NCBI GenBank assembly: GCA_008632985.1
Contig: QPGO01000027.1
Coordinates: 310,001 to 374,000, forward strand
DNA length: 64,000 nt
From: Psammoneis japonica
Taxonomy: Eukaryota
Direction of reading: 5' to 3'
Under the pieces are notes generated by a model. It made no database searches. It saw only the letters and a program-made list of their open reading frames with translations, and had not been told where the DNA came from. Position numbers and translations under genes: made by a program. Below are positions 19,601 to 49,233 of the stretch, one piece after another; the stretch's first letter is position 1; each line of letters opens with the position of its first letter.

Positions 19601-19809
19601 CCTGTATGTTACGTCGAGCTTGTTATACTCAGGATCTGGTCCTCCAGCAGCACCAGAAGGGTCCTTGGCAAGTGAAAGAATTCCACATCCATTGGCATTT
19701 TGGGGGCTCCTCGCAAACGTCGTTCCGTTGCAAGGATGCACTTAGCCGAAAGACTGAGCAAGAGCAAGAAGAAAGAAGATTTACAATTGAACTTGGTCAG
19801 CATTTTCAT
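16633..19809 (-). CDS. Large secreted mosaic protein (~1050 aa) split by about 3 frameshifts
   Basis: Signal peptide plus ERRLRG motif, then consecutive same-strand ORFs 19202-19741, 17457-19205 and 16633-17514. Pro/Thr linkers, an IPDRIEV...DSG domain and two C-terminal modules ending CCCxR. Confidence 0.75.
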
Positions 19810-20219
19810 TTTGTTACTTCTTGATTTTGTGAGAAATGTGGTTTTGCTTTGTGTGTTTTGCTTCTTGTGTTTCCGCAACCGATTGAGTCCTGCATCGACT
19901 CTGCCACGTTGGTGGTGACGTCACATGTTTCAGTCACGAGTGTTTCTCCTGCCGGGCATCATGCAGTCACCAATCCTGCGCGAGCAGCTTGGTGATGATT
20001 CTGAGCGGGCATTGGCCATTGGTTCTCGGAGGGACGGCATGCACGTCCGTGTCCGACCGCCCCCCAACCCAAGCCAGAAAACATCATGCAGACTGCAGAC
20101 GACACGATGTCCTCACTCATGGGCCTGGGTGGGCCCAGGGGCCTGGGCTTCCTGAGCATGGAGCACCATGATGACGGCGCAGAATCTGTTGTCCTTTTCA
20201 ACGAGGCTCACATCGAAAA

Positions 20220-24600: not shown

Positions 24601-24648
24601 AACAACCTTGAAAACTATCTCCCGTACATGAGAGCATTTGTTTCACCA

Positions 24649-26724: not shown

Positions 26725-27084
26725 TGCCCCCATTTTTGCATATTAAACCGTGCTGTGTTGTGCTATCGAAAACGCACTGCTCATTCTACTACTTCTATAT
26801 CGGGGGATAGTGTCTGAAACTGAAGGACCTTTGCAGTTAGTCTACTGCAATTTGATAATACTGCAATTTGATAAGCCGCCATGCGGCACTTGGGTGAAGG
26901 CCCTAATACATGACGTGTGTGCCTATGCCGTTTCGCTGTTGACGACTAGCGAGTAGAAGACTCACTCTTTTGGGACGCTGTTTTATGTTTTTCTACTTTC
27001 GATTACGCTAGACTCTCGATCTAGCCGTAGAGAGTAGAGTGAACTGTAGACCAGTCTTTCGTTCGGGGGGGGGGGGGGGGGGGG

Positions 27085-27790
27085 GACGTCTCTGAACAGC
27101 TGTCCAAAGAATCTCGTTGCTGTTCCACCATAAACCTGCAAATCTTTTGCCACATTCACCACTCAAACATCCTGCAGATGTTGGCATCAAGCTCAGGCCT
27201 GCATCTCCGCACTCAAGCATGTGGCCCTTCTTCTTGACACAGCCATTCCAAAGCAACCACCACCTCCTCCACCTCTGGTTGCTGGCTTGCCTGCCCTTCC
27301 ACCAACCCTTCAACTGACACACCACAAAACAACATGCAGACCTAACATGACCACATGTCTCAACCAAGCAGATGTTTGGGTTTTCTGATTGGTGGCTGAC
27401 CACCTGGGCTCCATGCTCCATCGGGCGCTTCGTGCTCTTTTGTGTCTCCATCTCACACCTCCTTTTTGTTGGCGCACCTCCTCTGACTCCCCTTGCTCCA
27501 CCCTGGACCTCTGCTTCTTCCCCTTTCAATGCCCATCTGCCTGTGATTCCTTCTCCTTTGCAACCAACTCCCCCCTGAGGCCTGCTTTCCTGGGCTTCAG
27601 CCATCTGGGATTGCCGGCCACGCTCGCTGCCTGGGGCAGCGCTGCTGCTCCCACTGTGGTCTTCAGAGCATTGGCCATGCTGTCACCTGGCCCCTCTTTG
27701 GTTCAGCATGCCTGACATGCCCCAAAACTCGACAAATCACTTGCTTCACCCTCTCAAACAACCTGCCGCTGTTTCCATCCCCGTGTGACT
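27085..27790. repeat. TpA-depleted repeat fragment preceded by a poly-G run
   Basis: Abrupt loss of TpA relative to both flanks; G-run at 27065-27086. Confidence 0.5.
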
Positions 27791-28713
27791 GCACTGTCGC
27801 TTATCTCGCGCCCGTGTGCGCGGTTATTAGACTGTGTAGGCGTGTGTGCGTGTGTGAGGTGTAAGTAGAATATACGTAGAATTACTACTGATGAGTTGAC
27901 AGGCGGTGGATTTTCCGCCGGTACACAATCTACGCGGTCTACATGGAACATAAATTTATGTGGGTCTCTGAGGATTTTACATATCATTAACATTTCTTTG
28001 GTCTTTAAAATATACATACCCAAATTCAAAAAAGTGAGGAACACCCCGAAACACATTTTAGAATCTGTATAAAAAAAATTTCTATTTAACGGTCCGAACA
28101 GGTTCGCCCCGAAGCGCTTCTCAAAATATCCTCATTTTGTATATAGTAAAACATCTACTATTACCAAAACAGAGTCACTATCGGATAAATAGATCCCGTG
28201 TTCTTCGCGCGCAAACAACACGATAACGCACAACAACACCATGGCGAGAAACGCGAACGCCGTCCCCTCATCTACAAGTTGGGAATACGAGATACTATTG
28301 AAGTGGTTGGACAATATGTATGCGCTGTATTCATGGGTCAAGTTGGGTTTCTTCTCGTTGCTTGTTGTTGCGTCATTTTACTACGTTTTGACCCACGCCG
28401 TGTTCTTTGCTTTGTTGCTTCTGCTCGCGCGCGCGCCACCAACAGCTCTTCCTGCAGGGTATGGCTAGTTGCTCATCACATCGAACCCAAACGTGCGCGA
28501 CCAACTAGCCCTACCCCGGCTAACTCATAGCTTCGCTTTTATTTGCTCGCTCAGCTCGCTTTTGCCAACCCGTCACCGTCTGCACTCCATCCGTACCCCT
28601 TGGTGACGTTTCGTTTTTCATAGGAGTATTTTATTTTGAAGAGCGGCATTGTTGTTTTCAGTTTGTTGTTGGTATTGGTTTCCTTCGGCTTTTGATTGAT
28701 AAAGTATACGACT

Positions 28714-30514
28714 ATGCTTTACAATAATGCTTTGAGACGACCGAGAAGCCGCAGGAGAAGACATGCGTCTCATGACGATGTGGAGGCTGCTGTTTCTTCC
28801 GAATGGTGCGATACAGCATCGAGTCGTCGGAATGCCAACGTCGCTGCTTGTGACGGTGCCAAGGGCAACAAAGTGGCTTCGAGATACACAATGGTGTATA
28901 AGCGAAAGGTCTATTCAGTCCGAAAAATTGATTTGCATCTTGTAATGCTGATGGCAATGTGCATCAGTGTTCTGATATTCTCCTCTAACTACGCTGCGAC
29001 AAATTCACATTTGAAAGAATCTGTTTCCGACACGACGTTTCGTCCACGTACTGTTCGACAACTCGACGAAATTCCTACATCAACGTCTAAACAAGAAGCG
29101 AACCCAGACTATGGTGGTCTCGAGTTTGTTTCACTAAAGAATGCAAAAGGAGACCTGTTCACCCGCTTCCTTGATCCGTTGAGTGAGGCTGCATATGAGG
29201 CGAAAAGAATGGATATGATCATGAAATCCAACGAAACTGAAAATGAAATGACGAAACAGATGATTGTCGAGCTCCCAACTGGGAATCGGATTACTATCCC
29301 AATTGCAACACCTTTCACGAAATCGACATGTCATGGTCACACAACGACGGGAAAACTCCAGGCATCAACATTGCATCACGCCTCTTGGGTCAAGGTGGTT
29401 ATCGAAACTCCTGGAAACTCGTATCCTACACGAATGATCCTTGGATACTAAAGACTATCCGAATGTGGAGAAGAATTGGAATGCGAGACGCGACTATCGT
29501 TAAGCGCGATGCCTTGATTATGGACAAGCTGAGCTCATCAAACAGAATCGTAGATATGTATGGTCATTGTGGCACATCAGTTTTTGTTGAAGAATTGGAT
29601 GACGGCTTGGAGGATTACGTTGTTCCTGGTACAGGCTACATAAATCCCGAAGATTTGGACGATGAAAAGGAAGTGAAGCCGAAAAACAATTTGACAGTGA
29701 CAGAAAAGCTAGACATTGCCCTAAAAATGGCTGAATCAATTGCCGAGATGCATGGCTACAAGGTAAGACATTCGTTGACTCCGAAATTGCTGTAAGAAAA
29801 ATCGAACAAAAGTGCATATGACAGTTTCTAATCTTCTTTGACTAGGATGGCGTAATCGTCCATGGAGACATTCAGATCATACAGTGGATGAGAACAAAAC
29901 ATGGTGAACTAAAACTGGGAGATTTTCATCGTTCACAAATCATGGAGTGGAGCGAAAGTAAGCAAGAATACTGCTCATTCATTCTCGAAGGTGGAGGAAA
30001 TGTAAGTGTTTTTCCGCCATCATTTTTGCAGTTTACTGTTGCAATCTCATTGCCTCACACAGCCCGACTTGATTTGCCTGTGGATCTTCGTCGATCACAA
30101 ATAGCAACGTTCTCCTGAAGAATACGACGAAGGACAATGCACTGAAGCCATCGATGTCTTCAGTTACAGTAACATAATTTACTCCCTATTAACTGGCCTG
30201 TGGATGTTCTACGACAATGACGACTACGATGAAGTTCAGGTACGTTGAAGGCGAAGTTGCGAATGCTGGCTGACTTTTCGCAAAGCCAGCTACTAACATT
30301 GTTTGTGGCTTTGACACTTCAGAAACTTGTTGTCGCCGGAAAGCTTCCTTATGTAGATGACCGATACCGGACAAGAAGCTTTGTGGAAAGCAAGCTTGTG
30401 TCTGTAATGGAACGCGGCTGGAAATACAATGCGTCTGATCGGATTGGGATATTTGAAGTTGTGTCGATCCTGCGACAAGTAAAAGAAGAGAACAAGAAGC
30501 GGTCGAAAGCATGA
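28714..30514 (+). CDS. Type II membrane protein kinase-like (PKDCC/VLK-like architecture), copy 1
   Basis: Basic N-tail, TM segment, YYPNCNTFHEID, LGQGGYR, LKTIR, VHGDI, LKLGDF, RSPEEY, IDVFS. Introns at ~29763-29846, ~30002-30103 and ~30240-30321; one frameshift near 29245. Confidence 0.85.
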
Positions 30515-30539
30515 TGCACCCCGTACATAGCTGAGCCCT

Positions 30540-30940
30540 CTAGAGTCGAGTGCAATGGCCTGGTCCTCAGCAACAGCCATAGTGTGAACCGCGGTGAAGC
30601 TTGTGTCTCTGTCGTCGCTTCTCCAGCTTGAATATAATCCACGTCTCCCAACCTTTCCGCGGAGAAAAGCAAACACAATGGCTGCGTGACCCAGCATCTG
30701 TAGAAGCAATTATTAAAGTAACAGTGAGACTCTCTTTAGAAGAGGCAACCCCAGTGACAAGCACTGGGTTTGAGACGATGTTACGGCATGGAGATGTCAT
30801 CTGCCTATACTTGCTGTTTGAGCTATCGTGTTGTGCATGTGCAACAGATCTGATGTAGTCAGTGTAGCCCCTTCCATAAATCAAAGATGAAACACAGTTA
30901 ACGATGACTTCGAAACAGCAACATGTCCAATTGTCTTCCA
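30540..30940 (-). pseudogene. Orphan duplicated last exon of the GH3 gene
   Basis: Aligns with 46109-46510 (MTSPCRNIVSNPVLV.., FLRGKVGRRG..FTAVHTM). Frameshifted, with no upstream exons. Confidence 0.75.
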
Positions 30941-33471
30941 TTTTGAATTTGGATGCTGTCCTTCTCCCGAATTTTCAAATGCACACACATCCAAAAAACA
31001 GTTTGCGGGGAATGCAATGCCATGACATGCCAAACCTGGTCATCACCAACATCAACAATGCCATGTTCAGAATGTAGATTCAGAAACATTGGGATCCTGA
31101 ACGGACAGAAATCCAATTCTGTGCAGCAGGAAGAGGTGCAGTTTCTTCCAGTCAATTTTTTTGCCGGATCCAAGATTTCAGTGTGAGAGAGATAAGAATC
31201 ATGGCTGGCATTGTTGTTTTGACTTTTGTTGTGTTGATTGGGGGTTTCCTTTGGCCATTGTTTGATGAGGTCAGAAAGCATGTGAATGCATTTTGGAACA
31301 ATGCTTTGAGATGACCAAAAAGCCACAGGAGAAACATTTGAAGTGGAGAAAGCTTCTGCCATTTCTTCTGCACTGTGCTGTGATGACACAGCACTGAACG
31401 GGGCCAGGATGAGGAATGTCCTTCTAACCACCACCCTTGCAAAGCTTTGCTCTGCAGTCAATGCAGTGCAGTCCACAAGGACACTGCTGCTCATTTTTGA
31501 CTTGTTCCAGACTTAGGTGGCGCGCACATGCCCCTTTTCGCAGAAAAAAAATTTTTTATGCTTTATACAACATCGTACATATTTCATCATTTTGATCATA
31601 TTTTAATTGCTTATAAGTAAAATAAACAGAATAAACTCGAACAAACAAACAGCCAAACCGGCCATGGCTTTCAGTGACCATGACGGCCCACTTTTTTCAG
31701 CCTTATGGAAAATTTAATGTCATGACGAGGACCTCCGTATTTGATATAGTCTATGGCATCAACAACAATAGTGAAAATGCTTGTTACAGGTTGCAGCGCG
31801 GCACAATAACACTGAATCTGTCAGCAACAACAATTGAGCCTCAATTCACTCACAATTTGCCTCTAAGGACCATTTCTTTGCCATTACCATGTATACTTCC
31901 TCAATATATTCGACGGATTCAAGTGTCTCAATTGTTTATGCCTCTTAAACAGTGAAAAATGGTCCGAAGTCGACGCCATTGCGTGGGCTGAGCTACCCTT
32001 CTTCTCACGTCGTCCGAAACTTATTAATCAACGTATGTTTTATTCGATCCGTTGAATCAAAGTTGTATTCGCGCATTGTAACCAAAGATTAATTATGTTA
32101 TGTTAGAGGGTTAATTTATATATAAGAATAATATTTTATACGTTTCTACACACATTTAGACATCTATAAATCGCTCCTCGGAAAACAGAGCTCTCAACTT
32201 GCGGTACAATTTAGGGACTAATAACTGAGTCCATCGACAGTTTCGAATACATGGGTACACGCACAAGACCTTTCTGTATGTACCCATAACAACACATTTG
32301 AAAATTGTTATGTTTTTACTATCGAAAATGGTGCCGCAAGTGTGGACCGCGCGTTTCATGCGAAAAGGGTCATTTTTTCGCGCGTGAGGGCACCTAAGTC
32401 TGGAACAAGTCTTTTGCAAGAGCCAGAGATTCAGCAATGGGGCCTCATGTGGGTGCCTCAGTGACAGCCAGCCTGTGAGCCTGAAGGACTTGTTTTGGAC
32501 ACAGAGGCTGCAACAGCCACAGCAGTCTGTTGAGCCTGCATGTCAAGCCATTGTCAGGATCAAGTGCAAGCTGCACTGCCTTGTGCACCAACAGCCAGCG
32601 TCATGGGCTCCTCTCTTCAACTTAAACAGGAGCACACCACTTTGCAGTGCAGCCAGCAAAAAAAACACAAGGAAAAAGCTCTGTTGGGTCATCAGCCAAA
32701 GTTCCTAGAGATTGTGATTGCAAGAGGGCCGAGACTCAAACACTTGGCCACATGGGTGAAGCATGGCTCCAACTTTGTTTGGGCAGCAGCAGATTTGAAC
32801 AAGACAAGCTGACATTGAGAGGAGGCAGTGACAGTCCAAAGATTTCACAATGAAACAAAGTCAACAGCACCAGTGTTGCATGGCAGAATCTGAGCTCTGC
32901 TCTGCAAGCAGAGTGAGACAGAAGCCACAGACATGATGGGGTGCATGGCTCATGGTTGTGATGAGCCCACCAGAAGCATCATGATGCACGGTTTGTTTTT
33001 GGGTTGTTCTGAGATTGCCGCAAAAGCAGAAACTTGCTCACATGTGCACATTCATTGTGCACCTCCTGTCTGCATCTGAGTGGGAGCCATCTTGGCCTTG
33101 GTTGCATGACAACAGATGCTGGCCTCTTTCAAACATTTTTGAGGTCTTCTTTCTGGCAACACACGCTGGTGTTTGTCCAACCTTGAGGACTTTGCTCATG
33201 AGATTTTGCAGCCAGCCTAGATGCTCTGCCATCACATTCAAGAATTTGAGGGGAAGTTGAATTTGAAGATGTGTTTGGGTTGATGGCTGTGCACATGGGC
33301 TTGTGTGTGTGCGCACTGCCAAGGATGCAGAGCCCAGGTCCAAACACTCTTTTTTTTTTCAGGAAAGCTGCCACAAGCACATGGCACATGACAACAGAAC
33401 TTTGTCAGCATTGTTCCAGTGCTGTCATCAACAGGATGCCCCCAGCTCAAGTGTTTTGAGGATGGAGTGCC
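30940..33471. repeat. Old TpA/CpG-depleted repeat hosting the MITE and the Gypsy; continues at 43426-~43990
   Basis: Composition. The Gypsy TSD tgcc joins 33471 to 43426. A weak minus-strand CPFRI...W.V...H motif might be Mutator-related. Confidence 0.55.
31499..32411. mobile_element. MITE with perfect 21-bp TIRs
   Basis: gacttgttccagacttaggtg (31499-31519) / cacctaagtctggaacaagtc (32391-32411). Flanked by tttt on both sides (probable TSD). AT-rich and TpA-rich interior. Confidence 0.88.
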
Positions 33472-33997
33472 TGCAGCATGCCTCGCCACTGGACAACACG
33501 GCGAGACCGTGCACAAGCCTCTTGTGCGTGGCAACGCAGTGTTGTCAACACGCACCTGGGAAGCACGACCACAGGAGGGCGTGGCTCTGGGTCTCAGGCA
33601 ATTCCAGAAGGATGCCAAGAGAGCATCCGTGTGAAGCACACTGGCCCGTCGTCTGGCCCACGATGGCAGCGTGATTCCACATGATGACATCACTCGTGCA
33701 TGGCGCGTGATGGCTTGATTCGCACGATCCACAATGCGAACGCACGATCGACCCAATGCGATCCAAATGCAAACGAATGGGGATTTGGCAAGATTCCCTG
33801 TTTGCACGATCCCATTTTCTCCACTCTAAACTAGCTCACAATTTTCACAACGACAAAGTCGCAACACATCTTCTTTTTCAGTGCCTGGCACATGCACAGG
33901 GCACAGCAATGTCACTCCCGCACATTGTGCGAGGTGATGAAATCTGCAGAAACGAAACTACGAAATGTTGGTGGGACCGACAAATCTTAAAACGACA

Positions 33998-34428
33998 ATG
34001 AAGAAGCGGATTGAGCCGCCGATTCCGTTCGCACGGCCGGAGAAGAAAGAGCTGCAGCAGGGCGAGCACCAGATGTTCAAGCTGCGTAACAACCCCACTG
34101 ATCCGGATGGTCCAACACACGAGATGGGCATTCCCCACCTTTCTGCGGCTGCATGCGAGACACTCCCAATCTTTCTGCGCAACGTGGATCGCGTGCACGA
34201 AGGACAAAACATCACGACCGGGCCAGCGAAATTTGCCCTCATGCGTGACCCACTGCAGGGCAATGCTCTGATGTCATTTGACAATGCCGCTGACAAGCAG
34301 GCATCCCAAGCCAACGCTGCGCATGCAGCATGCGTCGTGAAGCTAAAGGAAAGCATCTTCCCACATGGGGCAGTGCTGCTGCAGAAGCGTTGTCTGAGGC
34401 GCTTCATGCGCAAGCCCGCAGAGGCTTC
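33998..34428 (+). pseudogene. 5' part of gag of the outer Gypsy
   Basis: MKKRIEPPIPFARPEK...QKRCLRRFMRKPAEAS joins in frame to 39162 (ARDCVARAVEING..QFPP) once the inner element and one TSD are removed. Confidence 0.85.
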
Positions 34429-37400
34429 TGCAGTGTGCGACTGTTGTGTGCACATTTGTGATTACACATTGTTTGTGTGTCAATCGCACCACAGTCGTGG
34501 ATGCGCACAAAGGACAGAACGATCACACAGAGTTGATCGGATGTCGAGAATTGCAAATACGATCGATTGACGATGTTGACATCTTGCGTGTCAATGGCAA
34601 TCGCATCCGGACAATCTGTTGTCACGAACATGTTCTCCGAAAGGCCTTTTGTCTGTAGAAGCAGCACAGAAGCTTTAGGCCATTGAGAACTCATTCGGAG
34701 AAACCAAAAATCACAGAGTAAAATCTAATCTCATAATTTCCACTTTTCGTACACTGTTCTACTTTCGTTTACACTCGTTCTTCGAGCACAGTGCATTGTG
34801 CACACACACCACAGAAGGTAAAAAGCACGGAAAATGAAGATTTTAACTAATGTGCCTTTGTAAATTCTTCTACAAACAGGAACGAATCGCATCAGTTCTG
34901 CTGGAATCGATTTCCGAGCGGAAGAAGCTCAAGCCGAGCAGCACCTCAAGATGGAACGCTGTTTTTCGTCTACCAGACAAGAGGATTCGCTCTGGTGCGG
35001 TCTGTTCCAAGCACCCAAGGATCAAGGGCTCTCAAGCACACCGCATTATCAAAAAAATCTACACCAAGTCATGGTTGCAGAGAATGCAAGTTCCGAGTCG
35101 ATCAGATCCGAGAAATGCGTCTACCATGCAAGGAGAGACTGTTGGAGAGTTTTTTGAGACCGAATCGATGATCCTCGAGTCCAAGGAGCAAGATGGAACC
35201 GTTGAAAAGCACCTCAAGAGTCTCGTGTCTCATGTCTTTCCAAGAATTGCACTTCAGAATCAGAGTTGTCATTTTCAAGACGACCTGAAGAAACCAGAGC
35301 TGCTTGACAGCAAGAAAGCCTCTGTTAGACCCAAGAGGTCAATGATGAGAGTCTGTGCGACCCTCAGATGGATTCTAAGTCGAATCTAGCGGGAAACCGA
35401 GCACTGATTTGTCAGCTGTCACTCGCACCGCAAGGATGGCAGCACCAGTCTACTGTCCAAAACAATCAACTGTTGCAACTCATCCTTGATGAGCTGATTA
35501 AGTTTTGAGTCATCTGTGGGTCGTTCATGACGTCCGTGACGAAAAAACACATCAACTCAGGCTCTGACAGCGCAGTTGGTTCCAAAATAAAAAAGGTTCC
35601 AAATTTGGTTCCAAAAATGGTCTCCCACATGGCACCAGAACAATCCAAAGTGAATGCAAGGTCTCATCTTTGAAAAAAGAATACCCACATCACGGATTGA
35701 AGCCATTCTAAAAATGAACTGGCAAAAGAGTGCAAGGGTGACTCTGAAAGAGACCCAAAAATGCGCCGTTCAAATGGCAATCGCACGCGGTCGCGTCGCG
35801 ACAACGAAAATGCCGCTCGCAAAAAAAGAGATGAACGTCATGATTGATCAGGCGGTTCAAAAAATGCTCAAAGCGAGTTCCTTGAACAAAGAAAAAGAGC
35901 ACAAGGGCAAAGAATCAGATTCTGATGCCCTCAGTGAAGAAAAGTGCCAATTTGATCGGATGATCCAGACTGAATCCGAAGAATGATTTTGGTCTGTTCA
36001 CGAATTGCATGCTTTACTGGACATCAGGAAGCCTAGAAAAAAGGCAGAAATAATTCACACTGGTCCAGGAGTCATCATTTATGTGAACACTTCCTTGGGA
36101 AAGGAGAAAAAAAAAAAGCATCTGCGTGTTCCTATCGACAACGGAACATCGTCAACCACAATTTTGCGCAAATTCGTGCGAAAGTTGAGAACACAAGAAT
36201 CCGCCACCAAAAACTTGGGAAACCAAGGGTGAGCTCTTTACGACTGGTGGTAAACACCGAATTCAGTTCTCACCATGCGAAATTTAAGGCATGCTGACAT
36301 GCAAACAGCATGTGTTGAAAACACCAAATTTTCTTCAGGTTCAAATGATGTGATCATGGGACGCGACTTAATGTCCAGTCCTGCAAGTCATGTTGGACTA
36401 CGCAAATGAAGAAATCTAATGGGAAGAAGCAATTGCCTTATGAAGAATGTTCGTGCACTCTTCGATGCCGATGTTTTCAAGCTGAAAACCGATCACATTG
36501 AAAAATGTGACGCCGTGAATAGAGTCAACAACGGAACCAATGGTCCTCAACTCACATTGTCACGCCATCGATCTTAATCAAGTGACAACTACGGTGATGC
36601 ATCTAACCCAAATGAACACAACCAACTCAATCTTCTTCTTAAGAGGTTGAAATCGTTTTGAAAAGTTCCTCAGACGAATGCATGGGAAGCATCAGTGGAT
36701 CTCATCGTGGAAAATCTGACGCGATTCCACAACGCGTGAGAACCTTCTCCTATCATAGTCTTTGGAGGCGTCCAATCAAAAGGAGTTTGACCTGTTATGA
36801 AAGATTGAAGTCTCAAGAATGAAATTGCTCTGAACAAGTCGCTCTGAGACTCATTGTCTAAAGAAAACAGGTCGAGTTCGACCGCATCCGACACTCAGAA
36901 GCTTAGCACAAGGTTCATACAGGTGGCGCATCCTTTACCCAATATTCAGGAAATACTGTTGAAGCAAGAACGTTTCATACATGCAATCTATTTGATTCAA
37001 ACATGGAATGCCACCATGTCAAATAAAAAAAGCACACGTTGTGCTCACACAAAAATCATGCCGTGGGGAGAAAATGAGTACTATGGACTTCCAATGAGAA
37101 TCTATAGAGCCCCAGATAATTTTATACAACACTTGAGTGAACTCACAACAGGTTTGAAGTTGTCAGAACGACCACATGTGATCGTTTGTGCCTGACAAAA
37201 GTAACTTCAAAATATCACCTGCACAAGTAACAGCTTAATGCGGCATTCAAACGACTAGAACAGTCGCTTAGAAGGTTAACAACAAAAGTCCTTCACTATT
37301 TAACTTGAAATAAACTATCAAGACTTCCATACGTAACGACATGCAATCGATTACAAAGAAAATGGAGGCGATTCAAGCAATCGCAACACGAGAAAAACGT

Positions 37401-39157
37401 AAAGAACACTACGACATCTCGTTGTCATACGTTACTATTATCGAGACATGTAGTCTCAACGATCTCCTGTACAATACTAGCCAAATTCACCTCAATAAAG
37501 GTCAAACGGCAAAAGTACAAGTACGGAACGAAAAGTCTCCGAAAATATGGAGCGTATCAAATCAAAAACTATGTTGTTATCATACACGTATTTCAATATT
37601 ATACGTTACAACGGAAAAAAGAACTTCTGTCCATAGTGAAAACACTTATAAAATTCCGAAATATACTGTTTGGCCAACAGATTTATACATATACGGATCA
37701 TAAGACACAACGGACAAAGTCATACGTTGACAACTTCAGTCCCGAATTAGAATACAACGAGGGCAAGGCGAACATCGTCGCGATAGACGCGATCAGCCGA
37801 CTTACTATAGAAAATTGAATCCTACGACAATGTCCTACCGTTAAAACGGGATAAAGACATTCCCTCCAAATTGTCGGACGCGACATATCATACGAACACT
37901 TTTCGTGGAGGCGAGCGAGATCGAAAAATGCTCATGTCACAAGGATAAAATCGCCTTTTTAAAGGACGATTTAGGAAAAAACAGTGACAGATTGGTGCAC
38001 ATTATACGCATCCACTTCACACTGGCAAAAGACAATCTCACAACACCCGTACGGTTGTATTGTACAATGTACGAGGCAAGACATTAAAACACACATCATG
38101 TCGACACACGAGATGTGCCAAAGATCTAGAAAAAGAAAAGAAAAATGGACATTTGTCCACTTGGTGCACGAAACCAATGCCTTCGGAATGACAAAATGAC
38201 ACCGGCATGTCAGAAAGAAACGTCCAAATGACGATTAAAATCCAACTGACAGATGGTTGAAGTGCAAAAAAAAAAATCCACAATGGAATTCACAACCATC
38301 ACAGGATTGATCATCAAGACGAAATGGTCACAATGTCTTTGACCATCGTTTGTTGTTGCTTGTGAAACGTGGCAGTGCAGCAGAGCAACATGGCGTGTAA
38401 AGTGAGCCTGCCAAACTGCATGAAATCCACAAGCAAGCAAGTGAACGCCACAATTGAGAGTGCACATCAAGCACTGGGCACGATGCCATGCACAATCGAC
38501 ATCAGGAAAAACACTTGCTCCAGGACAATTGGTCCTTGTGTTCACATCAACAAGAACGTCAATGAGAATGCTCGACGCAATGCCACGTGCACACATGTTA
38601 AGTGAGAAACAAACAATGTCACTCTCAAAAGACATTCGGAAATTGGAACGGCCCCACATGGCCTGTACAAAACGACAACAGTCATTGCCAATGGCACAAT
38701 GCAGTGAACGTGGAGACATTGTTGGCACTGTCAACATCCGTCGAACAATCCACTTAACAAATGACTCTAATGTGCAGTTGGGGAGGCGAATGCAGTGCGC
38801 GACTGTTGTGTGCATGTTTGTGATTGCACGTCATTTGTGTGTCAATCGCACCACAGTCGTGGATGCGTGCAAAGGACAGAACGATCACACAGAGTTGATC
38901 GGATGTCGAGAATTGCAAACACGATCGATTGACGATGTTGACATCTTGCGTGTCAATGGCAATCGCATCCGGACAATCTGTTGTCACGAATGTGTTCTCC
39001 GAAAGGCCTTTTGTCTGTGGAAGCAGTGCAGAAGCTTTGGGCCATTGAGAACTCATTCGGAGAAACCAAAAATCACAGAGCAAAATCTAATCTCATAATT
39101 TCCACTTTTCGCACACCATTCTACTTTCGTTTACACTCGTTCTTCGAGCATGGTGCA
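34429..39157 (+). mobile_element. Nested, internally degenerate Ty3/Gypsy element (inner element)
   Basis: 367-bp LTRs 34429-34795 and 38791-39157. TSD cttc at 34425-34428 and 39158-39161. PPT ggggaggcgaa. Broken protease (PIDNGTSST), RT (HPLPNIQEILLK, MPWGENEYYGLPM) and RNase H (YTDHK, GKANIV..DAISRL). Confidence 0.93.
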
Positions 39158-39159
39158 CT

Positions 39160-42100
39160 TCTGCTCGTGACTGCGTCGCGAGGGCTGTTGAAATTAATGG
39201 CTGTGTCTCTCAGTTTCCACCCGTGACGGAGGATGGAGAAGCACCGGCACCATTGCCTGGCGACGAACCATGTGATGTGTTCGAGTGCGGTGTGCCGAAC
39301 GCATGGCAGAAGTTCATGACGCTACAGAATTTTGACCCGTTGGCGCATGCTGTCGCCGAATTTGTGCAGTTCTGCGAGCGCACCGAGCAGGTCGAGCTCA
39401 CCGAAGGTAACCGCGACCAACATGCCAGGGTCCCACGCAAGCGGGGACGTAGAACGGACAATCATGAGTCGTTGATCACGACCCAACCGAACACCCATGT
39501 GAAACGTGTCAAAACTGGACATTCCAGTAACGGAGGCAGCAAGCCTAATATAAAACCTCGGAATGAGGAAGACATCAACACACTCATCGGATCGAAGGTC
39601 GAGGAGTTCTTTGCCAACGCTCAGAAAAAGCGCAAGGCACGCGAGGAGGAGCTCAATCACTTCCGCGACCTCAACTTAAGTGATTCCGAAGACTCGGACA
39701 CTTGCCGACACGACACAGGTAGTTTTAATACATTAGATGAATGTATTAATGAACAATTGAATTACCATCGTACACGTGTTGTAAGCCAATCCCGCAAACG
39801 AGTTAAAAAGACTCATCTTACTCCAATCTTGTTTATAGCTATGAACACTAAACATGGCAAGGGCAAGACTCAAACTATTAAGGCACTACTAGATAGTGGC
39901 GCCAGCAGTGCTCTACTCGACAGTCGATACTGTAAACGTCTGCGAAGCCATTCAACGGCTGAGACAAACTGGACTACGGTAGCAGGCTCGTTCAGTACGT
40001 CTAACGACTGTACCGTTAAATTTTGGTTACCAGAATTATACGAAACTGCAGAACTTAAACATACCGTCCACGTACACAACGGAAAGTTGGGCAAGTACGA
40101 TATGATTATTGGACGTGACATTCTGGAGACACAAGGCATTGATATTGTCTTCTCTAAACAGATGATAGAGTGGCCATTAGTCAATGGAGAAGTACCAATG
40201 AGGCACGTAGATGCTACGGTAGAAACCTCCTTCTATCTTCAAGATCCAGAAGCCTTATCTTCGGAAACCAACCGGATTTCGCGTATTTTAGACGCTAAGT
40301 ACGCGCCGGCCTGCCTCGAGGACATAACGAGAGAGGCAATAGAACTTTCTATAGTTCAACAAAACGACCTTTTGGCACTATTGAAACGCCATGAGTCCTT
40401 ATTTGATGGGACATTAGGAGAATGGAAGGGAGAACCCTACCATATCCAACTCAAGGAGGGTGTAGAACCACACCACGCTCGTCCGTATAAAGTACCTCGT
40501 GCGTACGAAGTTACGCTACGTAAAGAAGTAGAACGCCTAGCACGCATCGGTGTTCTCAAACGCGTTAACCGATCCCAATGGGCAGCTCCATCATTTATCA
40601 TACCGAAGAAAGATTTAACGGTACGCTTTATTAATGATTTCAGAGAGCTGAATAAACGGATCAAGCGATTGCCTTGTCCGATTCCTCACATCCAAGATGT
40701 GCCACTCAAGCTCGAAGGCTTTGTGTGGGCTGCATCGCTGGATTTAAACATGGGCTGTCATCACATCCGATTGGATGCTGATGGCAAGAAGCTCTGCACG
40801 CTCATCTTCCCGTGGGGCAAGTGTGAGATGCAGGCATTGCCCATGGGATTGTGCAACTCGCCAGACATTTTCCAAGAACGCATGTCAGGCTTGTTTGAAG
40901 ATCTGTCGTTCGTTCGAACGTGCTTGGATGACCTTCTCGTCGTGACGAAAGGCACCTGTGAAGATCACCTCAACAAACTTGAAGAAGTCTTGTTGAGGGT
41001 CCAGAAAGCAGGGCTAAAAGTTGATGCAACTAAATCTCATTTCTGTCAAACCCAATTAGAGTGCTTGGGCCATCTGGTTGACAGAGACGGAGTGCGACCA
41101 ACACCTGACAAAGTCGACGCCATTGAGCGAATCGTGGCCCCAACCAATGAACGCGACCTCCGCTCATTCATTGGCATGGTGAGCCACTGCCACGACACGT
41201 GGATCAGACGTTCTGAAGTCTTGGCTCCGCTGACACGACTCACAAGCGAGACTGTCAAGTGGGAGTGGACGTCCGTTGAAGATGAGGCATTCGAAACCGT
41301 CAAACGGGTGATGTCGGATGATGTTTCATTGTCACATCCTGATTTTAACAAACCCTTTGAGATGCATGCCGATGCCTCTAAACATCAATTGGGAGCAGCT
41401 GCATCCCAAGACAACAAACCTGTCGCCTTTTGCAGCAGAAAGCTCAACAGTGCGCAATTAAATTGTGCAGCAACGGAGAGAGAATCACCCGCCATTGTGG
41501 AGACGTTGAAAGAATTTCGAACCACTCTCCTTGGTCATCGTGCAATTGTGCACACTGATCATAAAAATCTCACGCACAAAGCATTCAATGCCGAGCGCGT
41601 CATGCGCTGGCGGTTGACATGCGAAGAATGCGGTCCCGAATTATGCTGTGTCAAGGGTGCCCACAACCCAGTCGCTGACGCTCTTAGTCGCCTTCGGCTG
41701 GCACCCAGCTTGCCTTCCCAGGCCAATCCAGATGTGAAAGACACTCCATCGAGTCGTCCTTTACATGAAGCCTTTAATGCAGACGCTCAAGATGAGCCAT
41801 CTCTGCCTGTTGGCTTCAAGCGCATTCAAAAAGCACAACAAAAGGACAAGCGCCTGCTCTCACGAGCTGAGGACTCGTCCGACTGCTCCATTCGCGCATG
41901 TCGTGGGGGAGGGTCATCACGACAGTTGGTCTGTCATAAAGACAAAATTGCAGTGCCACAGTCATTGCAGGTTCCGCCAACTGAATGGCACCATGAGACA
42001 CTGTGTCATCCAGGTGAGACACGTACGGAAATGTCCATTGCCCAGCACTTCTGTTGGCCTGGCATGAGGTCTAAGGTGCACTCTACATGCGTTGAGTGCG

Positions 42101-42954
42101 ATCAATGCCAGAAGACAAAACGCCGAACGCAGCGCTGTGGGAAGCCACCAGAAAAGGTCGCAGAGACAATTCCATGGGAGACTCTGTGCATGGGTGTGAC
42201 AGGGCCATGTAAAATTCAAAGACGCGGAAAGGACACCTTGCAATTGTGGGCAGTCACAATGATTGACCCAGCAACCGGGTGGTTCGAGATTAAAGAAGTG
42301 TCCACGAAACGCGCAGACGTCGCAGCAAACGTCGTGGAACAAACTTGGCTGTGCAGACATCCATGGCCAACCCAGGTGGTTCATGACCGTGGGACAGAAT
42401 TTATGGCAGAATTTGGCCAGATGATTAAAAATGACTGTGGGATTTTGAAGAAACCCATGAGGAAACGGAATCCACAGGCGAATGCCACAGTGGAACGTGT
42501 GCACCAGACACTTGGTGACATGGTGCGTTCCTTTTCAGTGCAGGGTGTGGAACTGGACAAAGATGACCCATGGAGTGGCGTCCTCTCCACAGTGGCCTTC
42601 GCCATTGGAGCTGCGGCACATGCGACCACGCGTGCAAGTCCCATGCAATTGGTCTTCGGACGCGATGCGGTTTTGTCTGTTGCCCATCGTGCCAAGTGGA
42701 AGCACATAGAAACCAGAAAGCAGAAGCTTGTCCACTCAAACAACAAGCGTGAAAATCAGAAACGCAAGGAGCATCAATGTGCCGCAGGGCAATTGGCACT
42801 CATCAAACAGGAACAATCCTCTAAATGCGGTTCTGACAGCTGTGCAGGACCCGCCAGAGTTGTCCGCATGTGTGACAACGGCACGTTGCGCATCCAGAAC
42901 GGAGCGCTGACAGACACGCACAATCTGCGGCAGGTTGCACCCTGTCACCAGTGA
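39160..42954 (+). pseudogene. gag (3' part)-pol ORF of the outer Gypsy; open but with catalytic motifs mutated
   Basis: Protease LLDSGAS; RT LPMGL and CLDD (for YLDD); RNase H ADAS, TDHKNL, VADALSR; integrase HHCC, DRGTEF, VERVHQT. Confidence 0.95.
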
Positions 42955-44223
42955 GACATTCTGTCACTTGACGGCCCTGATCAAGGGGGAGTGTGCAGCA
43001 TGCCTCGCCACTGGACAACACGGCGAGACCGTGCATGAGCCTCTTGTGCATGGCAACGTAGCATTGTTGACATGCACCTGGGAAGCACGACCACAGGAGG
43101 GCGTGGCTCTGGGTCTCAGGCAATTCCAGAAGGATGCTAAGAGAGCATCCGTGTGAAGCACACTGGCCCGTCGTCTGGCCCACGATGGCAGCGTGATTCC
43201 ACACGATGACATCACTTGTGCATGGCGCGTGATGGCTTGATTTGCACGATCCACAATGCGAACGCACGATCGATTCAATGCGATCCAAATGCGAACGAAT
43301 GGGGATTTGGCAAGATTCCCTGTTCGCACGATCCCATTTTCTCTGCTCTAAACCAGCTCATAATTTTCACAACGACAAAGTCGTAACACATCTTCTTTTT
43401 CAGTGCCCAGCACATGCACAGGGCATGCCACATGCAAGACAAAACATGCACACATCTCTGCAGTGGACACCAGCGGTTGACACGTTGTTGGCAATTGACG
43501 AGCTGCAGGGTGCAACATGCCACATCACTGCAATCTGACATGTGCCAACTGTTGCTGCAACATGCAAAAAAAATTCTTAGAGTTGTGCAAAAAAAGTTTG
43601 GTCATTTTAATGTGCGAGTGCTTGTTTTGGTGTTGACATTTTTGCGCCGACTTTTTGACAAAAGCCAAGTTTGGCGCGCTGGTGTCTCCCCCCCACCCCA
43701 CCCCTTTGCCACATTGTTGGTGCTTCTCTAGCAGTTTCTGCTGTGGTGTGAGATGGCTGAGTGCTCATCTTTGTCGCCATTGCTTTTGTGATTGAAGTTT
43801 CTCATGCAGGGAGATTTTGCCCTTTGAATGGCTTCAGACAAAATGTTCGGAGAATGAAAAGAAAAAGATGTGGCACTTGGGCCACCCCAAAGCAGACTTG
43901 CTGCATTTGTTTTTTTTCAAAGCCATGTTACACTCTGGACCTGTCCATGGTTGTGGTTTGAAATGAAAGGACACTCAGGCGTGACCACGCTTTACACAGG
44001 CAGCAGATCTCAAGAGTCAGTCGTGCAATTTTTGGGTAATGGGCCTCCTCGATGTTGTTGACCGTTTTTGGTGGTGTTTGTATTCTTGGACAAGACTGCT
44101 CGAGGGAATAATAAAGCAAAAAAGTGAGCGTGTGTTTGCCCTCATGAGAGGGCGTTGTCGTTTCCGTTGGTTGGTGGTTTCCTTGCATACCCTGGTCGGG
44201 TCACAAAGCACGCTACTAATACT

Positions 44224-46083
44224 ATGTTGTATTATGATGCCATGAGACGGCCGGGAAGCCGCAGGAGGAGACATTCGTCTCATGACGATGTAGAAGCTGT
44301 TGTTCCTTCAGAATGTGAAACCGGGAGTCGAATTGTTGCCGTCGCCGTTGGTGACCATGCCAAGAAGAAAGAAGTGGCTATGATGTACAGGAGGTACAGT
44401 CTTGAGTGTAAACAAAAGGTCTACTCATTTCGAAAGGCTGATTTGTTTCTGATAGTGGCGATGGCAATACGCATCAGTGTACTGATAATCTCCGCTTCCT
44501 CGGCGACGTCAGCTGTGAAAGAGTCCTTTTCCAACATGTCGTTTCGACCACGTACTGTTCCACAACTTGACGAATTTCACTTGTCAGTCAGTTTGGTTGG
44601 TAAATCAGTCGCCCCAGTCCTTTCGCTGCCTTTCAATGAATTGCCTAAATCAACGTCGAAACAAGAAGTTGGCCCTGACTTTGGTGATCTCGAGTTCATT
44701 TCCCTAGGAAATGCAAAAGGGGACTTGTTCAGTCGATTTTTCGATCCTGTTAGTCAGGCTGCTTACGAGGTAACGAAAATGGAAATGATCAAGATGAAGT
44801 CCAACGAAACTGAAAACGATGATAGCGAAACAGATGACTGTCGATCTCCCAACTGGAAATCAGATTACTACCCCAATTGCAATAGCTTTCACGAAATCGA
44901 TGCATCGTGGTCACACAACGACGGCGAAACTTCAGGCGTCAACATTGCATCCCGCCTTGTGGGTCGCGGTGGCTATCGAAACTCCTGGAAGCTCGTATCC
45001 TATACTAATGATCCGTGGATACTAAAGTCGCTCAGAATGCGGAGAAGATTTGGGAAGCGAGACGCCTCTATCGTTCAGCGCGATGCCTTGATTATGGACA
45101 AGTTGAGCTCATCAACAGAATTGTAGATATGTTTGGTCACTGTGGCACATCGGTGTTCGTTGAAGAATTGGATGACGGCTTAGAGGATTGCATCATCCCT
45201 GGTACCGGCTTTATGAATCCGGTCGACCTGGACGATGAAAAGGAAGTGAAGCCGCAAAACAATTTCACGGTGACAGAAAAGCTAGACATTGCCTTAGAAA
45301 TGGCTGAATCGATTGCGGAGTTGCATGGTTACAAGGTGAGATATTTGGTGGATCTAAAATGCTCGAGGTTAGCGAGAAAGAACAAAAGTGCATCCGACAA
45401 CTCATTCCTTTCTTCTTTGATCAGGATGGAGTTATCGTCCATGGAGACATTCAGCCCATACAGTGGATGAGAACAAAACACGGAAAGCTTAAACTGGGGG
45501 ATTTCCATCGTGCAAAAATAATGGATTGGAGCGAAAGCAAGCAAGAATACTGCAAGTTTATTCTCGAAGGCGGTGCAAATGTAAGTGTGTTTCCGCCGTC
45601 ACGATGGGAAAAAATGTGTCCACTACTTCTTCTCACCTAAGACCGTCTCGCTTTGTTTGTTTCACCCATGACAATAATAGCAAAGATCTCCTGAAGAATA
45701 CGACGAAAGAGAATGCAATGAAGCTATCGACGTTTTCAGTTATAGCAACATTATTTACTCCCTTCTAACAGGGCTCTGGATGTTTTACGACAACAAAAAC
45801 TACGATGAAGTTCAGGTACGTCGAATGCTGGGGCTGATTTTCCTTGTAGCAAACAACTAACACAACGAAAAATATGGCTTTGACACTGCAGAAACTTGTT
45901 GTCGCCGGGAAGCTTCCTTATGTAGACGACCGATACCGGACAAGAAGCTTCGTGGAAAGCAAGCTTGTGTCGGTAATGGAAAGAGGCTGGAAATACAATG
46001 CGTCTGATCGGATTGGGATATTTGAAGTTGTGTCGATCCTGCGCCAAGTAAAAGAAGCGAACAAGAAGCGGTCGAACGCATGA
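44224..46083 (+). CDS. Type II membrane protein kinase-like, copy 2
   Basis: Paralogue of 28714-30514 with the same motifs and intron positions; frameshift near 45112. Confidence 0.85.
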
Positions 46084-46108
46084 TGTACGCTGTACACCAC
46101 TGAGTCAT

Positions 46109-49100
46109 CTAGTCCAATGCAATGGCTTGGTCCTCAGCAACAGGCATAGTGTGGACCGCGGTGAAGCTTATGTCTCCGTCGTCGCTTCTCCAGCTTGAGT
46201 TTACTCCACGTCTCCCAACCTTTCCGCGGAGAAAAGCAATAGCAATGGCTGCTGCACCCAGCAACCCAGCAACTGTAGACGCAAATATTGAAGTAGCACT
46301 CAGACTATCCGTAGAAGAAGCAGCCCCAGCAATAAGCACTGGATTCGAGAGGACGTTGCGACATTGAGAAGTCATCAACCTACAGTTGCTGTTTGAGCTA
46401 TCTTGTGCATACGCAACAGATTCGATGCAGTTGACATAGTTCCATCCCCTAATCGAAGATAAAACATAGAGTTAAGGACAACATCGAAATAGCATATCCA
46501 ATGGTCACATTTACTTACCATCCTTCTTCTTGTTCTGGCCGTTAAATGGGGGTGCGGTTTCGCTCGTACACATGTCCCAACAACGGCTTGCAGACAGAGA
46601 CAACTCCTTACCACATCCACTTTCGGTCCATAGTGTACAGGCGGCATCGCAGGCGGCAACATAGTCATCACCAGCGTCAACGGTAACATATTCAGAACAA
46701 AGACCAGAGTTTTCTGTTCGATCGCATTCTGCGAAAGGCCCTACACCCAAGCGGAATCGCAGTCCGTGCTGCAGAATGAGGTGCTTTTTATCATGAGCAC
46801 CCACAAATCGAAGGTCGTTGACTGAAATCGTGACCGTCACTGTTTTCGTTTCACTGGGCAATAGCGTCACTTTTTCAAAGGCTCGTAGGCGCTTGTTCTC
46901 AGGGGTCACCTGCCTGCTCTCATCAAAGGTGAAAAACATTACAACCTCTGAACCTTCCCGGTCACCAGTATTCTGAACGTCCACAGATACGGTCAATGTG
47001 TCATCAAGCTCCTCGACAGCTCGTCGGTCCTGGCCTTCCGATCTATAACGAATTGTGTTGGTACTAATGACTAGATTCGAATACTGAAACGAAGTGTAGC
47101 TCAGACCATGACCAAACGGCCACTGGACCTCACACGGAACATAATTGAAATGCGGCAACTCGCCTTCTCCCTCGGTACACTGCTCTGACACAGCGTGAAA
47201 ATAGGGCGAACCTGCTCCATCTTCAAACTTTGGATACGTAATTGGCAGCCGCCCGCTTGGATTGGCTTTCCCGGCAATCAAGTTCGCAACTGCACGACCA
47301 GCGTCCGGTCCTGGGAGAAAACCGACCAGGACGCCATCGGCAACATCCTATCGAAAAAGAAGATAAAGTAGTCGACCGACAAGAAATATGAATGCGACAA
47401 AAGGTGTAAAACAACAGTCTCTCTTACCACCATGTCTTTGAGGAGTCGGGGACGTCCACCAAAGTATACTAGGATAATCTTTGTATTTGTCTTCTTGATC
47501 GCTCGAAGCAACTCGTACTGTCCATCGGGCAGTGTCAATGATCTAATGTCTCCCGGTTTCTCTGCGTAATCCTCTTCACCGACACAAACCACTACGTAGT
47601 CCACATGAGACGCCTGATCAGAAGCACGCTGAATGGAGCTAGAGTCGTCACTATCGCCAAGACCTATCCAATTTTCAACCGTGTCGACAATGCCTGAATC
47701 ATGCTGACTCCAACCATCTTTGTTTTCATCATCGCTGCATTCGTTTCCAAGAATGTCAACCCCACAACTGGTCGTGACATGCCAAGATTGGCTGGTGCTA
47801 CCAATAGCTTCTACAACGGTTGTACCATACGAGAACCATTTGTCGTCATTGGACGGCACACCGTGAGCTCCTTGCCACTGCCAAGTCCATCCTCCACTCT
47901 GGTACCGCAACGAATTGGAAGTGGGACCCGTGACATGAATCTTAATATCTTCTTGTATATTCAAGGGAAGTACATTGTCTTTGTTCTTTGTCAAGACAAT
48001 ACTCTGCTCGGCTGCATCCAACGCGTCTTGACGCCCTTGGCCGACAACATCCAGATTGGCATTATCCATCGAAATCGTTTCCTCCATCATGCCGAGCTGT
48101 TCCTTGAGAGCCAAGACACGTTGGGCACTTGTATCGATGCGCTTCATGTCTATCAAATTGCTCTTGACTCCATCCAAAACGGCAACTCGAAATCCTTCTG
48201 GATCCAATGGAATCATGCTCATGTCAACAGAACCTTCTTGGAGAGCATGAATGGTTGCATCCGTGTCGGACGACGACACCCTGTGCCAGCTGTGTAGATT
48301 GAGATTTCGGAAAGTCCGTAACTAAAACACCCTCAAATTGCAATTCGTGCCGCAAGAGCCCCACCAGCATGTCGTGGTTTGCCACATTGGGAACGCCGTC
48401 CGTCTCGGTGTAGCTCTCCATAACGGTCAACGGTGCATAATCCTTATCCGTCAGCGCATGACGCCACGGCGGAACAAAGTATTGATACAAGTGCCTTGTC
48501 GGTATCCAACTCGGACTACGATCATGTCCGTGGAGTGGTTTGCTGTATCCAACAAAGTGCTTGGCACAGGCAGCGGCACGAGAAGGAATTACACCCTTTT
48601 CTGCCTTTTGAATACCCGAAATCTGTGCCAAAGCCATGGCACCCGTTAAGTAGGATCTTCTCCAAAGGTTTCATAGACACGACTCCAATTGGGTTCCAGA
48701 GCAATTCCCAGTAGAGGAGAAAAGAGCCATGTAATGCCCGCGCTCGTGTATCGCGACTGGCCATTTCTCCCGCGATCCGTGCGGTTGTTGTGTTCCAAGT
48801 CGCGGCTAAATTGATGGGCTGTGGCGATAGAACCGCACCCTTGATGTAATTGGCACCATGAATGCTATCCAAGCCCCAAATTACGGGAGGTCGATTGTGC
48901 TTTTTTGCAATGGTTTGTATATCAATTATGATTTTCGATAGTCGTTTGCGGATTTGCTCTGACCTACGAAATTGTTGAGTAATGAACCAATTCCAGCGTT
49001 CCAAAGTAGTGTTCAAGTTTCTCGGGGTCAACATTCTTGTCGTCATCCAAGAGAATCGAGACATCAATCTGTGACATTTGACCAATCTTTTCTTCGAGTG

Positions 49101-49233
49101 ACATTTTTTCGACAAGCTTGACGACACGACTCGAGGGCTTTTTTTTCGTGTTGGACGCTTTCTTCAGGCTGAGAGGGTGTTGGCCCATGTTGCTGTGCTC
49201 GTGAGAATGCGCTTCGGTATCGTCGCCTGCCAT
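46109..49233 (-). CDS. Glycoside hydrolase family 3 beta-glucosidase with Fn3-like domain and C-terminal TM helix
   Basis: MSLEEKIGQMSQID, GLDSIHGANY, AACAKHFVGY, FEGVLVTD, GEEDYAEKPGDI, NPSGRLPITYP, PFGHGLSYT, KRLRAFEKV. Introns near 47340-47425 and 46450-46517; several frameshifts; start uncertain. Confidence 0.93.

Follow-up and report, generated by a model that had tools for sequence, protein, structure and literature searches.

A Ty3/Gypsy retrotransposon copy hypermutated at TpA sites holds a TpA-normal island with step edges

How can one copy of a retrotransposon be nearly saturated with a single kind of mutation and yet carry, in the same reading frame, about 1.1 kb that looks untouched by it? 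The copy in question belongs to a Ty3/Gypsy long terminal repeat (LTR) retrotransposon family and lies in a 64,000-nucleotide stretch of Psammoneis japonica DNA (assembly GCA_008632985.1, contig QPGO01000027.1, positions 310,001 to 374,000 of the forward strand), which we call the window and number from its first letter. A first-pass annotation of this DNA had placed an unmutated island at 39540-40665, within a pol open reading frame (ORF) otherwise almost free of TpA dinucleotides. It had proposed that the mutating process acts in discrete, near-saturating tracts, and had offered guided targeting, processive patches, or later gene conversion from an intact copy as possible causes. The features on which the argument rests are as follows, with o/e standing for the observed/expected ratio.

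39223..42954, forward strand: gag-pol ORF of the Ty3/Gypsy LTR retrotransposon, defined from the ORF list, Pfam, and an alignment to 39 relatives
39528..40654, forward strand: unmutated island, comprising the C-terminal part of gag, the protease, and the first ~20 residues of reverse transcriptase (RT); TpA o/e 0.99; "normal" state of a hidden Markov model (HMM) at 39528-40653
38128..39527, forward strand: left TpA-depleted tract (TA o/e 0.13 to 0.26), comprising 663 bp of an unrelated high-depth repeat, an LTR-end fragment, the leader, and the N-terminal part of gag
40655..43992, forward strand: right TpA-depleted tract, comprising RT, RNase H, integrase, an LTR-start fragment, and 562 bp of flanking DNA
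39529..39534, forward strand: AACGGA, left copy of a 6-nt direct repeat at the island's edges
40655..40660, forward strand: AACGGA, the same 6-nt repeat at the right edge, 1,126 bp away from the left one

The gag-pol frame is single and continuous over 1,243 amino acids (aa), and the island does span the gag end, protease, and RT start within it, as the first-pass annotation had read them. The pol order of protease, RT, RNase H, and integrase is that of Ty3/Gypsy elements (Metaviridae), with Pfam matches to RVT_1, RT_RNaseH(_2), Integrase_H2C2, and rve, and the closest relatives are 50 to 59% identical with matching domains. The protease motif DSGAS falls in the island and is intact. The frame as a whole is open yet crippled, its YxDD motif reading CLDD. 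By a direct reading of the genetic code, it stays open despite CLDD because changes of TpA to TpG or CpA make no new stop codon: only TAA to TGA yields one, and TAA and TAG can themselves be removed.

The compositional contrast between the island and its flanks is large. A two-state HMM run on TpA starts called the normal state at 39528-40653. The island is real, and the coordinates first given for it were right to within about 12 bp. Its 1,126 bp contain 83 TpA (TA o/e 0.99, CA 0.98, TG 0.82; GC 45%), and in its core, at 39720-40653, the TA o/e is 1.06. The flanks contain 45 TpA in 4,739 bp (overall o/e 0.15, range 0.05 to 0.26), with CA and TG o/e of 1.2 to 1.8 and a GC content of 50 to 56%. 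The ratio of TA to CA plus TG counts is 83/128 for the island but 45/949 for the flanks (Fisher P = 6.7e-38). There are 6 to 11 TpA per 100 bp over 39700-40699 and 0 to 3 on either side. In the flanks homologous to the family, 35 TpA remain against ~259 expected at island density, meaning that ~86% are gone; discrete, near-saturating tracts are thus an apt description.

Both edges of the island are steps. The right-hand switch, which had been placed near 40665, is completed within 8 to 22 bp: the final TpA stands at 40653, and the first inferred change is at 40662 (possible) or, more securely, at 40676, where Tyr485 has become Cys and the relatives have Tyr. The last 150 bp of the island hold 14 TpA, and the next 347 bp hold a single one (o/e 0.05, the most saturated part of the flank). 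On the left, a CA at 39525 is followed by the first TpA at 39528; this edge is judged by composition only, because the relatives do not align in gag. A pair of AACGGA repeats at the two edges has a chance probability of 3.5% (P of about 0.035) in a post hoc test.

We then compared the encoded protein with 39 of 120 listed relatives (P0001 to P0040 without P0024, which covered 5% of the query), defining a Tyr column as one with Tyr in at least half of the 39. The right flank has no Tyr in 766 aa, and all 30 of its Tyr columns are changed (17 Cys, 10 His, 1 Trp, 1 Phe, and 1 Ala), while the island core has 9 Tyr in 312 aa and keeps four of six Tyr columns. Conserved columns tell the same story: 93 of 423 differ in the right flank, of which 44 are explained by TA>TG/CA at the codon, compared to 11 of 116 in the island, of which 2 are so explained. 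These two (His at 40390 and 40471) are probably family features, since the metagenome contig covering them differs at only 1 of 151 positions. The comparison with relatives rejects amino acid or codon bias as the cause of the TpA contrast. Once the explained columns are set aside, an excess of other divergence in the flanks is not significant (9/116 unexplained differences in the island, 49/423 in the right flank). We also rejected a nested insertion, as the island is collinear and in frame with the relatives across the right edge and 105 of its 116 conserved columns are identical. CpG decay proved unusable as a clock, in that the flanks owe their lower CG o/e to a higher G+C content and the raw CpG density is similar (5.6 per 100 in the island, 5.1 per 100 in the right flank).

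The kind of mutation can be read from LTR copies of the family. Two remnants adjoin the internal region, and a further copy lies upstream in the window. Sequencing run X1, mentioned here and below, is a DNA run that holds 49% of the sampled words and possibly comes from the source organism.

38791..39159, forward strand: end of the family LTR (369 bp); of the 1,326 bp present at 33472-34797, the first ~957 are absent
42994..43430, forward strand: start of the family LTR (437 bp), preceded by a polypurine run; the other ~890 bp are absent
33472..34797, forward strand: second LTR copy of the family, 1,326 bp long, together with ~50 bp of internal sequence upstream; mutated independently
43431..43992, no strand assigned: DNA outside the element; 4 TpA, TA o/e 0.10, CG o/e 0.40; on a single-copy-depth contig in X1

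When coded as purines and pyrimidines, the LTR pieces are 98 to 100% identical to the second copy (38791-39159 against 34429-34797, 100% by BLAST of the coded sequences). In 803 aligned nucleotides of uncoded sequence, the pairs show 13 sites with CA in one copy and TG in the other, 11 with TA against CA or TG, 9 of CpG type, and 3 other transitions, with no transversions and no indels; 37 of the 49 differing nucleotides are TA-derived. By comparison, a control duplicate of normal TpA content (28701-30935 and 44221-46506; an old direct duplication, ~80% identical) shows 145 transversions in 1,836 nt. A site with CA in one LTR and TG in the other implies one ancestral TA that was hit separately, on opposite strands, after the copies had parted.

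Hits within the element are likewise scattered over both strands. Among the changed tyrosines, the outcome is Cys (plus-strand hit) 17 times and His (minus-strand hit) 10 times (binomial P = 0.25), and their order along pol is random (15 runs against 13.6 expected, z = 0.59), with the adjoining codons 512/513 and 655/656 each hit on opposite strands. Given this random order and these opposite-strand neighbors, a tract is the sum of many independent single-site hits. Of the earlier interpretation, the hypermutated flanks, the unmutated island, and the discrete states therefore stand, and the processive patches do not. The mutation is TpA to TpG or CpA, arising at single sites independently on both strands of integrated DNA.

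Some contexts resist it. Among the 104 TpA that survive in low-TpA tracts, TTAA is present at 0.45 and CTAA/TTAG at 0.25 of their counts in normal DNA, and GTAA/TTAC is also enriched, while ATAT, ATAG/CTAT, and ATAC/GTAT are nearly wiped out (0 to 0.01 of the normal count). These contexts indicate a 3'-neighbor preference of T>C>G>A.

One described process fits this signature. In Bigelowiella natans, according to a 2026 preprint, integrated giant-virus and virophage DNA undergoes only TpA>TpG/CpA mutation, ~1,000-fold above background; 124 depleted clusters are reported, and an ADAT2-like enzyme is the candidate (Mettrop et al., bioRxiv 10.64898/2026.01.13.699255). Three of the features that characterize it recur here: almost exclusively A:T>G:C transitions at TpA, both products, and confinement to mobile or foreign DNA. 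The window further resembles the B. natans case, as presented there, in that TpA>TpG and TpA>CpA changes alone fall on both strands of foreign or mobile DNA beside normal host DNA, and in a long-term loss of TpA with gain of CpA and TpG in kilobase-scale clusters; TpA-depleted coding sequences of B. natans are enriched in reverse transcriptase Pfams (10.64898/2026.01.13.699255). It differs in that de novo hits in B. natans were, by that account, measured in two viral regions where depletion has so far gone only halfway (3.3% TpA), whereas the tracts here are 84 to 97% depleted. The words "LTR," "retrotransposon," "patch," and "clustered" are absent from the preprint's main text, which does not describe a mosaic copy (10.64898/2026.01.13.699255). 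A literature search for other reports of TpA>TpG/CpA mutation turned up only this preprint and papers on repeat-induced point mutation (RIP). We conclude that the hypermutation is a new example of the process described once before, in that preprint.

Better-known systems share some of these traits. RIP in Neurospora and other fungi changes C to T at CpA, which makes TpA and stop codons, and its borders are set by the extent of a duplication. Like RIP, the process here produces near-saturating, dinucleotide-specific transitions of repeats in place, with leakage into single-copy DNA; unlike RIP, it changes A:T to G:C, destroys TpA, makes no stop, and can leave abundant repeats unmutated. Fungal RIP was rejected on these grounds, as TpA is lost rather than gained, GC rises from 45% to 50 to 56%, and the 1,243-aa frame is open. 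Hypermutated retroelement copies with one type of transition in a preferred dinucleotide context also recall APOBEC3, which converts C to U in cDNA, and ADAR, which converts A to I in double-stranded RNA and favors a 5' U and a 3' G. Both act during replication and mark one strand, and APOBEC editing leaves gradients that are reset at polypurine tracts. Here, by contrast, both strands are hit equally, the 3' preference is T>C>G>A, an LTR fragment and a single-copy flank are hit, and the island is bounded by a step on either side. We rejected ADAR- or APOBEC-type editing in the course of retrotransposition because both strands are hit in random order and single-copy DNA outside the element is depleted; the two steps, with no gradient, likewise reject an editing gradient of the polypurine-tract style.

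The surroundings of the element suggest that mutation took place in the chromosome. The low-TpA state continues through 43431-43992, and an X1 contig of 2,484 nt at a depth of 59.4 covers 43426-44500 with three differences. The mutated state thus seems to spread ~560 bp past the repeat, unless 43431-43992 is an unrecognized older remnant. That this segment is poor in TpA and CpG and sits on a contig of single-copy depth argues for mutation in place, leaking into neighboring DNA. Together with the independent hits in two integrated LTR copies, this depletion of the single-copy flank lends indirect support to a de novo origin in chromosomal DNA.

The copy also appears to be old. Two complete LTRs around the internal region were not found, so that it is a truncated member of its family, and the blocks adjoining the LTR remnants (663 and 562 bp) show no similarity above that of shuffled sequences, whether to one another or to the LTR middle. 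The alternative to truncation is that the LTRs of this family are built differently from what we assume. Both remnants stop at one and the same point of the LTR, where the copy at 33472-34797 has a 523-bp middle part (33906-34428). Some X1 contigs join the end of this middle part straight to 39159/39164 as loose ends; the LTR architecture has variants. Truncation of both LTRs and depletion reaching into the single-copy flank point to mutation in place of an old copy.

Other copies of the family are plentiful. Placed at a likeness of at least 88%, X1 contributes 6,517 short contigs (140 to 340 nt over the element), with 40 of 275 variable places and 15 of 24 joints listed. Where the single-copy contig at 43426-44500 has a depth of 59, theirs sums to 9,000 to 20,000 over the internal region and to 32,000 to 71,000 over the LTR pieces; summed contig depth is not a copy number and serves as a weak hint only, by which parts of the element should not be ranked. 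With that proviso, the profile is roughly flat across the borders (mean ~12,900 in the island and ~15,800 in the right flank). At LTR sites 38920, 39019, and 39087, the unmutated T or A makes up >90% of X1 depth, and at sites 38849, 38948, 38958, and 38966, the window's C or G makes up 50 to 70%. From depth and LTR alleles together, it follows that the family is very abundant and mostly unmutated at many sites, and that partly mutated lineages have been amplified too.

A second sample, a marine-sediment metagenome from another study with 5% of the sampled words (X3), separates the island from its flanks. Over the island, an X3 contig at 40376-40526 differs from the window at 1 of 151 positions, and another at 40535-40685, which runs 32 nt beyond the right edge, differs at 4 of 151. 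Contigs over the flanks differ at 12/151, 14/150, 6/54, and 9/77. The island is therefore near-identical to copies in an independent sample, and the flanks are 8 to 12% different. Window alleles at 39582, 40511, and 41383 were carried by no X1 contig placed there. No same-family copy turned up in protein, metagenome, or viral collections: the searches gave a best identity of 59% with residues 1 to 800 as protein query, a best identity of 77% with a 100-aa query over the right junction (lengths 55 to 175), three loci at 47 to 53% in a metagenome scan, and none in a viral scan.

What, then, is the island? At ~86% saturation, hits that fall independently could not have spared 83 sites in a row, so the island was either exempt or a later arrival. 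We tentatively favor the second possibility, at a little less than an even chance: the island may be a homologous replacement, by ectopic gene conversion, from one of the many unmutated copies. On this reading, the locus would be an old member of a very abundant Ty3/Gypsy family, its structure decayed. After its integration, a TpA-specific A:T>G:C mutator, behaving like adenine deamination in a 5'-T-A context and presumably the process reported for Bigelowiella natans, would have hit it site by site on both DNA strands, turning ~85 to 95% of its TpA into TpG or CpA. The island would be family sequence that had not passed through the mutator; recombination would have put it in place of the matching mutated segment, too recently for the mutator to have reached it. 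Conversion from an intact copy is the best of the three causes originally put forward because the edges are steps. Only one other within-element edge could be polarized, at the second LTR copy (33472-34797), and it is graded over its last 142 bp, where 3 of at least 11 TA sites are hit, interspersed with intact ones; the difference from the island's step edges favors replacement. Donors would be plentiful, given the summed X1 depth and the >90% unmutated state at several LTR sites. The island's close match to X3 copies also speaks for replacement.

Ectopic gene conversion among dispersed retrotransposons is known, for instance in yeast Ty elements. As there, a kilobase-scale tract appears overwritten, with sharp junctions, in a collinear and in-frame element; unlike there, donor and recipient would be ~8% different outside the tract, and no donor was identified. 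Several points weigh against such a conversion. The case for it is built on the shape of the pattern. Mismatch-repair anti-recombination should strongly suppress recombination at ~8% divergence, which is how far the flanks are from unmutated copies, and shared sequence at the right junction amounts to at most ~21 bp. CpG density and unexplained protein differences are similar in the island and the right flank, so nothing independent shows the flanks to be older than the island. A simple conversion does not predict AACGGA at both edges. Finally, the absence from X1 contigs of the window's alleles at 39582 and 40511 fits a particular donor and also fits sequencing error.

The other explanations differ in what they make of these same observations. 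An assembly or consensus chimera, in which the locus is mutated throughout and ~1.1 kb from an unmutated copy was written in by gap filling, read misassignment, or polishing, is in our view unlikely. Reads from the wrong copy would be plentiful in so abundant a family that is mostly unmutated at the listed LTR sites, the island is nearly identical to other copies, and neither junction is confirmed by a long record, X1 contigs on the element reaching at most ~340 nt. The alleles missing from X1 at 39582, 40511, and 41383, the abrupt ends of both LTRs, and the end of an X1 contig at 43426 would also fit. However, the 21 bp at most that are shared at the right junction are too short for a graph join at k of 31 or more, and the island is not the family's majority consensus, as its A at 39582 and T at 40511 are not X1 majority bases. 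The window also runs without an N through several high-depth repeats, which suggests long-read support, and a read from an unmutated copy would be expected to map to its own locus in preference to one that is 8% different. Equally doubtful is a protected or untargeted segment, that is, a mutator aimed below the level of the whole element by homology or small RNAs in the manner of RIP, with no guide for the island; the copies abundant at that time may, for example, have been deletion derivatives without it. States across the window are indeed bimodal and tract-like, and depletion ignores element ends, stopping ~140 bp inside one LTR and extending ~560 bp into single-copy DNA, as expected of domain targeting that leaks. 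The AACGGA repeats, 1,126 bp apart, are what guide copies carrying a microhomology deletion of the segment would leave, although the test of that repeat was post hoc. Mean summed depth is somewhat lower in the island than in the right flank, which would also fit, although this measure is not suited to ranking parts. Against the idea, the present abundance of the island sequence is close to that of the flanks. None of the 15 listed joints (of 24) skips 39528-40654, and the other domain edges are graded where those of the island are steps. Abundance alone is no trigger, either: the neighboring high-depth repeat at 37500-38127 has normal TpA, and most family copies are unmutated at the listed LTR sites.

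A stronger form of the same idea, and a quite unlikely one, is that sequence homology or RNA guides direct the mutator to borders of near base-pair precision, making it an adenine-deaminating counterpart of RIP; the island would then be the footprint of an unguided segment, and AACGGA the deletion junction of the guide copies. If so, mosaic copies would map what the defense system "sees." Least probable, to the point of being hard to credit, is a mosaic made at birth by a reverse transcriptase that switched between copackaged RNAs of a heavily mutated and an intact copy. Two template switches ~1 kb apart are ordinary for retroelements, and the 50 to 70% of X1 depth that shares the window's C or G at four LTR sites shows partly mutated lineages amplifying that could be copackaged. 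Yet the copy looks old, with both LTRs truncated and adjoining single-copy DNA depleted, most hits differ between copies, and a newborn mosaic would need to escape the mutator in the island only.

The 2026 preprint is so far the single report of an A:T>G:C mutator directed at TpA in invading DNA (10.64898/2026.01.13.699255). To that report the window adds the signature on an LTR retrotransposon family, carried to near saturation by single-site hits on both strands, and the resistance of TTAA and CTAA/TTAG sites. It also adds dead elements that keep long open frames, which gene finders will call; they keep them because the mutation creates no stop codons. A copy in which saturated and pristine parts meet at step edges could separate "domain," "guide," and "recombination" models. 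If the island is only a conversion patch or a chimera, the case is an ordinary one, and interest would be high if the borders recurred in other copies.

The wider window is eukaryotic DNA with no N, in which host-like genes are interleaved with tracts nearly devoid of TpA. Host-like ORFs encode an IGPS-PRAI fusion, a leishmanolysin, a WD40 protein, and pieces of a GH3 glycosidase, with TpA o/e of 0.53 to 0.65. In a protein atlas, the IGPS-PRAI protein falls closest to a eukaryotic cluster dominated by diatoms (score 0.86), which is no more than a lead to the source. The HMM called nine low-TpA tracts (o/e 0.03 to 0.16):

Tracts 1 to 5: 1-4128, 12559-16535, 19627-24615, 27048-27801, and 30900-31513
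Tracts 6 to 9: 32321-34655, 34872-36014, 38128-39527, and 40654-43992

They make up about one-third of the window, and those of LTR retrotransposon and unclassified repeats are 84 to 97% depleted. Within them, CpA and TpG o/e reach ~1.5 to 1.8 (CA 1.5 to 1.7, TG 1.6 to 1.8; weaker in 34872-36014), and CpG is often low too. Hypermutation is limited to mobile or foreign DNA, the tracts adjoining host ORFs of TA o/e 0.53 to 0.65. We scanned 49 ORFs, drawn from eight low-TpA stretches plus a single repeat of normal TpA, and found no host domain; their Pfam matches were one RT_RNaseH, in the normal-TpA repeat, and one Ribosomal_S30AE below the cutoff. In tracts 1-4128, 12559-16535, and 19627-24615 (4 to 5 kb each), none of the 40 scanned ORFs of at least 110 aa had a Pfam domain. 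Many long ORFs in TpA-free DNA are probably spurious, because TGA is the sole stop there.

Several of these tracts have features of their own. Tracts 1-4128 and 12559-16535 contain pieces that are mutually inverted copies. Strong CpG depletion (o/e 0.1 to 0.3) marks TpA-free DNA at 14001-16500, 20501-24500, 31001-31500, and 32501-33500 and is absent from the Gypsy copy; a second process there is probably deamination of 5-methylcytosine, which possibly marks some tracts as older. Inside TpA-free 30900-34655, a 913-bp element at 31499-32411 is truly nested, with perfect 21-nt terminal inverted repeats, a TpA o/e of 0.82, and 37% GC. It looks like a younger nonautonomous DNA transposon that inserted after mutation, or one that was not targeted.

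A degenerate second Gypsy-like element occupies 36015-38127, with weak RT and RNase H matches, many stops, and normal TpA. Its summed X1 contig depth at 37500-38201 is ~8,700 to 11,600 and yet its TpA is normal, so high abundance alone does not bring on the mutator. The GH3 pieces, at 46511-49163, are spread over three frames, which points to introns or a pseudogene. Within a long minus-strand ORF at the end of the window, BLAST self-matches reveal an array of tandem-like repeats of ~70 to 75 bp at 62916-63743.

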